From Candidatus Sigynarchaeum calidifontis (GTDB taxonomy: Archaea; Asgardarchaeota; Lokiarchaeia; Sigyniarchaeales; Sigyniarchaeaceae), in NCBI GenBank assembly GCA_030587475.2, contig JAUQYZ020000133.1, forward strand, positions 1 through 25,746: a stretch of DNA of 25,746 bases, given 5' to 3'. The translations under genes and the position numbers were made by a program. Shown piece by piece: positions 21,043-21,190 of this stretch. The notes beneath the pieces were generated by a model. The model made no database searches and was not told the DNA's origin. It saw only the letters and a program-made list of their open reading frames with translations. Positions within the stretch are counted from its first letter, which is position 1. Every line of letters begins with the position of its first letter.

Positions 21043-21052
21043 AAAAACAAAA
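21043..21052 (-). terminator. Oligo-T terminator of the tRNA gene
   Basis: TTTTGTTTTT immediately follows the encoded CCA on the minus strand. Confidence 0.6.
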
Positions 21053-21190
21053 TGGTAGGGAAGGCGGGCTTTTCACATGAACTCTAAACGAGTTAACATC
21101 ATTCGAACCCGCGGCCGCCCGGTCCCTTCGGCGCCTTTTTTCAACAAACTAGGCCAAACCGGGAATCATACCAGGCTAGACCACTTCCCT
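21053..21190 (-). tRNA. tRNA-Pro(UGG) with two introns (21155-21127 at 34/35; 21101-21070 at 59/60) and encoded CCA
   Basis: The minus strand reads AGGGAAG TG GTCT AGCCTGGTA TGAT T CCCGG TTT [29-nt intron] GGGA CCGGG CGGCC GCGGG TTCGAA [32-nt intron] G CCCGC CTTCCCT A CCA. It has a perfect 7-bp acceptor, 5-bp anticodon and 5-bp T stems, U8, G18G19, TTCGA and G37. The mature length is 77 nt. Confidence 0.93.

Follow-up and report, generated by a model that had tools for sequence, protein, structure and literature searches.

A tRNA-Pro(UGG) gene with putative bulge-helix-bulge introns inside the anticodon and in the T loop in a Loki-type Asgard archaeon

We identified in a metagenome bin of a Loki-type Asgard archaeon a chromosomal tRNA-Pro(UGG) gene that is very probably functional, with two bulge-helix-bulge (BHB) introns that EndA, the splicing endonuclease, would cut out and exons that would be joined by RtcB. 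The gene lies on the minus strand of the window, the whole stretch of 25,746 nucleotides analysed here, and comprises three exons and two introns over 138 nt, with an encoded CCA at its end (Table 1). Excision in silico of gene positions 36-64 (29 nt) and 90-121 (32 nt) left a 77-nt sequence that ARAGORN called as tRNA-Pro(UGG). This call bears out the first-pass annotation, which had proposed from the sequence that a 138-nt minus-strand gene would yield a 77-nt cloverleaf with CCA once inserts of 29 and 32 nt were removed.

The spliced 77-mer has the attributes of a cloverleaf tRNA: it forms four arms, its acceptor stem is 7 bp long, and the invariant nucleotides are present. The acceptor stem recognized by ARAGORN starts with A1-U72 and pairs exon 1 with exon 3 at 7 of 7 positions, and it is followed by discriminator A73 and the encoded CCA. 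The D stem includes G10-U25, the anticodon loop is UUUGGGA with anticodon UGG and G37, and the T loop is UUCGAAG. Invariant nucleotides read from the spliced sequence were U8, A14, G18G19, A21, U33, G37, G53-U54-U55-C56-R57-A58 and C61. The T run TTTTGTTTTT that abuts the CCA is probably a transcription stop. The cloverleaf of the mature RNA has an energy of -25.6 kcal/mol, against -38.8 kcal/mol for the minimum-energy fold; because uninterrupted orthologues are likewise non-cloverleaf at their minimum, this energy is uninformative either way. A search of the window for an att-like repeat, in which the 3' part would recur in spliced or duplicated form, found none.

G60 and A1-U72 are uncommon in elongator tRNAs, and in archaea the A1-U72 pair is ordinarily a feature of initiator tRNA. 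This pair (window positions 21190 and 21057) is also kept in the orthologue of the same-genus genome G001, and the compact tRNA-Pro(GGG) of genome G002 (L036) likewise has A1-U72. G1-C72 is found in same-order relatives and in the host genome's own tRNA-Pro(CGG).

Table 1 Coordinates of the interrupted tRNA-Pro(UGG) gene in the window and of other hidden or mis-called tRNA genes on contigs of the same genome
Feature	Position	Strand	Remarks
Whole tRNA-Pro(UGG) gene	21053..21190	-	ARAGORN tRNA-Pro(tgg) call after in-silico splicing
Exon 1, A1 to U34 (acceptor 5' strand, D-arm, anticodon stem 5' strand, U32-U34)	21156..21190	-	
Intron 1 (29 nt), U34/G35 junction, inside the anticodon	21127..21155	-	strict hBHBh'
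Exon 2, G35 to A59 (anticodon arm remainder, variable loop, T stem 5' strand, most of T loop)	21102..21126	-	
Intron 2 (32 nt), A59/G60 junction, T loop	21070..21101	-	BHB with full core
Exon 3, G60 to A76 (last T-loop nucleotide, T stem 3' strand, acceptor 3' strand, A73, CCA)	21053..21069	-	
T-rich tract TTTTGTTTTT	21043..21052	-	abuts CCA; read from sequence
Phe(GAA), D-loop intron	C78:14626-14738		encoded CCA, T run at or near
Asp(GUC)	C115:6711-6811		encoded CCA absent; ARAGORN -i calls Tyr(ata)
Initiator-like Met(CAU), A1-U72	C192:28156-28261		encoded CCA, T run at or near
Leu(UAG)	C173:1426-1558		encoded CCA, T run at or near
Multi-intron gene	C242:70317-70451		encoded CCA, T run absent

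Every splice register of both inserts was scored for a BHB motif, the core of which was taken as a 4-bp central helix with two 3-nt bulges and the strict form of which (hBHBh') adds the flanking helices h and h'. Both introns possess a complete core, with 4/4 central pairs and two 3-nt bulges. The motif forms only in register 34/35 for intron 1 and in register 59/60 for intron 2, and neighbouring registers gave 0-3 of the 4 central pairs. The exon junctions ...CCCGGUUU^GGGACCGGG and UUCGAA^GCCCGC (^ marks a junction) coincide exactly with these registers; the coordinates and both junctions of the first-pass annotation are thus the BHB-forming ones, and its statement that neither intron occupies the canonical 37/38 site holds.

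In intron 1, C29-G30-G31-U32 pairs with GCCG as the central helix (4/4), with UU^G and AA^G as bulges; an outer helix U26-C27-C28/G36-G37-A38 (3 bp) and an inner helix GCCU/AGGC (4 bp) complete a strict hBHBh' motif. In intron 2, U54-U55-C56-G57 pairs with UGAA (4/4) between bulges AA^U and AA^G, the 5-bp T stem serves as the outer helix, and after one G.G mismatch an inner helix AUG/CAU is followed by the hairpin AACUC/GAGUU; the 59/60 register makes nucleotide 60 a G. When each intron was shuffled in place, the observed motif quality was matched by 0.1% of the sequences for intron 1 and 0.5% for intron 2. The BHB conformers lie above the minimum energy (-9.4 vs -17.1 kcal/mol for arm 1 and -12.3 vs -16.5 kcal/mol for arm 2), and that of intron 1 demands the pairing of three anticodon-stem nucleotides with the intron. 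As a separate observation, intron 2 starts with UGAUGU (AUGAUGU with A59) and ends with GUGAAAA, ends that bear a faint likeness to box C and box D of kink-turn RNA; a box C/D reading conflicts with the BHB, because the 3' part of the intron supplies the BHB central helix.

Cuts at 34/35, 35/36 and 36/37 would yield an identical mature RNA, and therefore the BHB motif alone singles out 34/35. Intron 1 might instead be a canonical 37/38 intron (...UUUGGC^...GGG^ACC, with C37), or a relaxed motif might direct the cut to 35/36 or 36/37, and the gene would then have one truly non-canonical intron only. ARAGORN with its intron option (-i) indeed assigns the intron to its 37 slot, the 37/38 register leaves all 5 bp of the anticodon stem to serve as outer helix and forms 3/4 central pairs, and the minimum-energy fold of arm 1 retains the anticodon stem. 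However, the inner helix is absent in the 37/38 register, and its product would carry C37, whereas position 37 is a purine in 19/19 relatives examined (G in 17, A in L012 and L019). Registers 35/36 and 36/37 form 0 and 2 central pairs. Moreover, G001 has kept the 34/35 BHB but, when the two sequences are read side by side, not the competing helix of the host genome, UUUGGC/GCCGAA. We therefore consider a cut at 37/38, 35/36 or 36/37 very unlikely and keep 34/35 as the site of intron 1.

We compared the locus with 40 relatives by BLAST, which returned tRNA-Pro genes throughout the order. The same-genus genome G001 has an orthologue beside the same phosphoribosyltransferase-like gene, which lies upstream (88% identity). 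The exons of the two genes are identical at 71 of 74 positions (96%), and the three changes fall at the unpaired positions 47, 57 and 60. Exon 1 is unchanged (35/35; 83-94% identity to the tRNA-Pro genes of same-order relatives), exon 2 matches at 23/25 positions with the differences at 47 and 57, and exon 3 matches at 13/14 with position 60 as the sole difference. The G001 orthologue is without intron 2 and without an encoded CCA. Its intron 1 occupies the same site, is 27 nt long and is identical at 19/29 positions; it keeps the central helix and the bulges and builds the inner helix from other bases (GAC/GUC plus a UCUCC/GGAGA hairpin). Conserved exons, a drifted intron 1 and a kept motif are the pattern that would be expected under selection on both the tRNA and its splice motif, and they favour a gene that works and is spliced over an artefact of assembly.

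Such an artefact would mean that one or both inserts are chimeric joins in the metagenome bin. The genome is a 4.99-Mb bin of 269 contigs (54% G+C, 89% complete, 5% estimated contamination), and the EndA alpha gene described below is broken across two ragged contig ends; both points speak for this reading. Yet intron 1 is found at the same site in an independent assembly, precise BHB motifs bound both inserts, and intron-bearing tRNA genes are general in the genome and in the order. A chimeric origin of the inserts is accordingly an extremely improbable explanation.

The tRNA-Pro(UGG) genes of other relatives are compact or carry introns at 25/26, 37/38, 43/44 or 59/60. In G010, which belongs to another family, a tRNA-Pro(UGG) gene (L004:1505-1642) has an intron at or next to 37/38 and a T-loop intron at 59/60. 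The latter has the site and the length (32 nt) of intron 2 and an unrelated, AT-rich sequence, which points to a recurrent use of the site. In the same-family genomes G002 and G003 neither pattern search nor BLAST found a Pro(UGG) orthologue, the matches being Pro(GGG) genes or coding DNA; intron 1 is therefore not datable beyond the genus. By the comparison with G001, intron 1 would be older than the split of the genus's two genomes, and intron 2 would have been either gained in the host lineage or lost in the sister lineage.

The first-pass annotation had named an intact tRNA-Pro(UGG) elsewhere in the genome as one part of what would speak against the interrupted gene, and such a copy does exist. 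When the genome was searched by pattern for anticodon arms of Pro(UGG), a second credible Pro(UGG) came to light at the very end of contig C212, and joining C212 to C82 through a 19-nt overlap gave an intact compact tRNA-Pro(UGG) of 77 nt. This copy belongs to an array of compact tRNA genes, about 31 in number, which are free of introns and for the most part encode CCA; the array extends over L027:11590-17719 (C212) and L028:1-1816 (C82) and includes a Ro60/TROVE-vWA ORF (L027:15389-16948). In G001 the array is contiguous, with 85-95% identity in a whole-array search and 88-92% across the joint of C212 and C82; the search did not find it in the remaining 39 relatives. Its tRNAs are divergent in sequence, with covariance-model scores of 30-54 bits; the array Pro(UGG) has U10.U25, G73 and the D loop AGCGGUCGA, and scores 39 bits for 63/71 positions.

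The existence of the array Pro(UGG) means that the interrupted gene is not demonstrably indispensable. It also raises the reading that the interrupted gene is a redundant or decaying relic, not spliced or poorly spliced, while the array copy does the decoding. An intact 77-nt Pro(UGG) across the C212/C82 joint that is contiguous in G001 is consistent with this reading, as is the finding that the BHB conformers are not the minimum-energy folds. A relic, however, would hardly be expected to keep exons that are 96% conserved within the genus with changes at unpaired positions only, or an intron 1 that has drifted and yet retained its BHB. The terminator-like T run and the CCA are still present as well. 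Furthermore, the mature sequence of the interrupted gene lies near the Pro(UGG) of other genomes in the order, whereas the array copy, with U10.U25, G73 and 39 bits, is divergent. We therefore think it unlikely that the interrupted gene is a relic; its conservation pattern argues that it is still used, despite the array copy.

A broader suggestion, which we put forward tentatively and regard as rather doubtful, is that the genus runs two parallel tRNA sets, a native dispersed set that bears introns and an acquired or specialised intron-free back-up array. If this were true, the array could serve as a back-up, for example when splicing or the native tRNAs are compromised; the interrupted gene would then be redundant under some conditions, and which of the two Pro(UGG) genes is used would be subject to regulation.

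The unspliced gene escaped the gene finders that we applied. ARAGORN made no call in the window, with or without the intron option, and the Rfam tRNA model (RF00005) gave no match to the gene at the gathering score, none in a whole-genome search and none at E<=10 on the locus alone, where a permissive Rfam search returned only a chance miRNA match. The failure of the Rfam model on the unspliced gene is expected because 61 nt are inserted. After removal of intron 2 alone, ARAGORN -i did find the gene. The concern that standard annotation may miss the gene was thus confirmed for ARAGORN and the Rfam model. The gene shows that tRNA counts for Loki-type Asgard genomes come out too low with ARAGORN and the Rfam tRNA model, and in the host genome the interrupted gene supplies the otherwise absent dispersed tRNA-Pro(UGG).

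We further examined the host genome for splicing enzymes. The host is a Loki-type Asgard archaeon, a lineage on which the first-pass annotation had made its inference conditional: its EndA beta shares 88% identity with the subunit from 'MAG: Promethearchaeota archaeon Zod_Metabat.1055', Promethearchaeota being the Asgard phylum of the kingdom Promethearchaeati in the NCBI taxonomy, and its relatives are AT-rich genomes of the same order. The EndA architecture, which had been singled out for checking, proved to comprise two paralogues, a catalytic alpha and a non-catalytic beta, both of which match Pfam tRNA_int_endo and its N-terminal domain. The EndA alpha gene is split between C178:1-501 (L021:1-501) and the end of C189 (last 230 nt). 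The 80-nt overlap between the two contigs is only 88% identical, pointing to variation among strains or to raggedness of the contig ends in this bin.

EndA alpha retains the catalytic Tyr, His and Lys (...VYRQGPGLDHS... and ...SVKK...), and it is matched best by catalytic subunits from Crenarchaeota, 2CV8 (1.6e-29) and 3P1Z_B. Its stretch GFYGKPIGIKKPDPKLAFD aligns without gaps to the Crenarchaea-specific loop (CSL, or L1) in S. tokodaii 2CV8 and in A. pernix 3P1Z_B, and M. kandleri 5X89, which is without the loop, has an 11-residue gap at this stretch. The loop insert in the N-terminal domain carries the conserved Lys, and the Lys-Pro occurs as IKKPDP where A. pernix has EKP. In EndA beta (C230, P0001, 233 aa), His is replaced by Pro and Lys by Gln relative to M. 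jannaschii 1A79. The alpha triad and a beta subunit without His and Lys are shared with the (alpha-beta)2 EndA of A. pernix (3P1Z), S. tokodaii (2CV8) and P. aerophilum (2ZYZ); in contrast to these, the host beta adds an acidic N-terminal extension of about 30 residues. RtcB is encoded in the genome as well. The EndA of this genome thus follows an (alpha-beta)2 pattern with an L1 loop, for which tetramer assembly and relaxed cleavage may be predicted by homology and from earlier work (PMC5829648). The first-pass annotation had read broad-specificity splicing from the gene, provided that the genome is Asgard; the gene does not by itself demand a relaxed-specificity enzyme, because both BHB cores are complete.

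On the basis of these sequence comparisons we propose the following scheme. The gene would be transcribed as a precursor of about 138 nt, from which a heterotetramer-type EndA, with a catalytic alpha carrying the L1/CSL loop and a non-catalytic beta, would remove both introns by cutting after U34 and after A59, and RtcB would ligate the exons. The tRNA predicted to result is 77 nt long, carries anticodon UGG, G37, T loop UUCGAAG, A1-U72, A73 and the encoded CCA, and would be used in translation. For presentation of intron 1, C29-U32 would pair with the intron in place of the lower anticodon stem; since these nucleotides are held by the intron, the anticodon arm would fold only after splicing. 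The gene may offer a clean natural example of an anticodon-splitting intron that forces refolding of the anticodon arm, and likewise of a T-loop intron found in one of two sister genomes.

Several elements of this system have been described before. An Asgard (alpha-beta)2 EndA with an L1 loop was already reported (Kaneta et al. 2018, PMC5829648). In three complete genomes of Asgard archaea, 92-95% of the tRNA genes bear introns, many of them non-canonical and multiple, and some of the intron-bearing tRNAs are missed by tRNAscan-SE (PMC11291895); Pro(TGG) genes with 2-3 introns are present in Supplementary Data 4 of the study (Valentin-Alvarado et al. 2024, PMC11291895). A preprint gives a census of Asgard tRNA introns over 90 Asgard genomes (bioRxiv 10.64898/2026.10.13.758758). 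Since published work already covers the interruption of tRNA genes in Asgard archaea, the under-annotation of such genes and an (alpha-beta)2 EndA with L1, the present gene is a good example and not a discovery, and it brings no new principle beyond the published work on Asgard tRNA splicing. Like the multi-intron tRNAs of the two studies (PMC11291895, bioRxiv 10.64898/2026.10.13.758758), it has an Asgard host and at least two BHB introns per gene, located at T-arm and anticodon-region sites, it is missed by standard finders, and close relatives differ by intron gain or loss. Atabeyarchaeia, Freyrarchaeaceae and Jordiarchaeaceae are the focus of those studies, whereas the present gene comes from a Loki-type host.

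Crenarchaeota are the classic case of non-canonical and multiple BHB introns, and a review lists 59/60, but not 34/35, among the sites (Yoshihisa 2014, PMC4090602). In the literature compared, we found no mention of the 34/35 site or of the present gene. The genes of Thermoproteales and other Crenarchaeota, with up to three introns per gene, share the splice-motif logic and the 59/60 site with the present one (Sugahara 2008; PMC4090602). They differ in belonging to another phylum and, in Thermoproteales, in having intron families, whereas our search of the host genome for related intron copies returned chance matches of 11-14 nt only and hence no sign of intron transposition. With the canonical 37/38 tRNA intron of archaea and eukaryotes, intron 1 has in common the enzyme family, the ligation chemistry and the location in the anticodon loop. 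In contrast to that intron, it would be cut three bonds upstream, inside the anticodon, and its BHB borrows three anticodon-stem nucleotides instead of extending the stem.

The gene is not the only interrupted one in the genome. In a whole-genome census, strict BHB candidates near a GTTCRA motif were excised and the resulting sequences were submitted to ARAGORN. This gave 47 loci, a noisy count to be read against 14 in the reversed-genome control, and the present gene was recovered among them. On inspection of the loci, the clear further cases were the hidden or mis-called genes listed in Table 1, which carry non-canonical introns, mostly in the D-arm. The census also gave a 'Pro(tgg)' at C48 and matches at C145, C3, C38 and C20, which were rejected as false positives in coding DNA. 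For tRNA-Pro(GGG), contig C319 of G001 (L035:1400-1700) has a gene that is interrupted twice, by an intron following the anticodon stem and by another within the T loop, and G002, a genome of the same family, has the compact gene noted above; introns are thus present or absent among close relatives for this tRNA.
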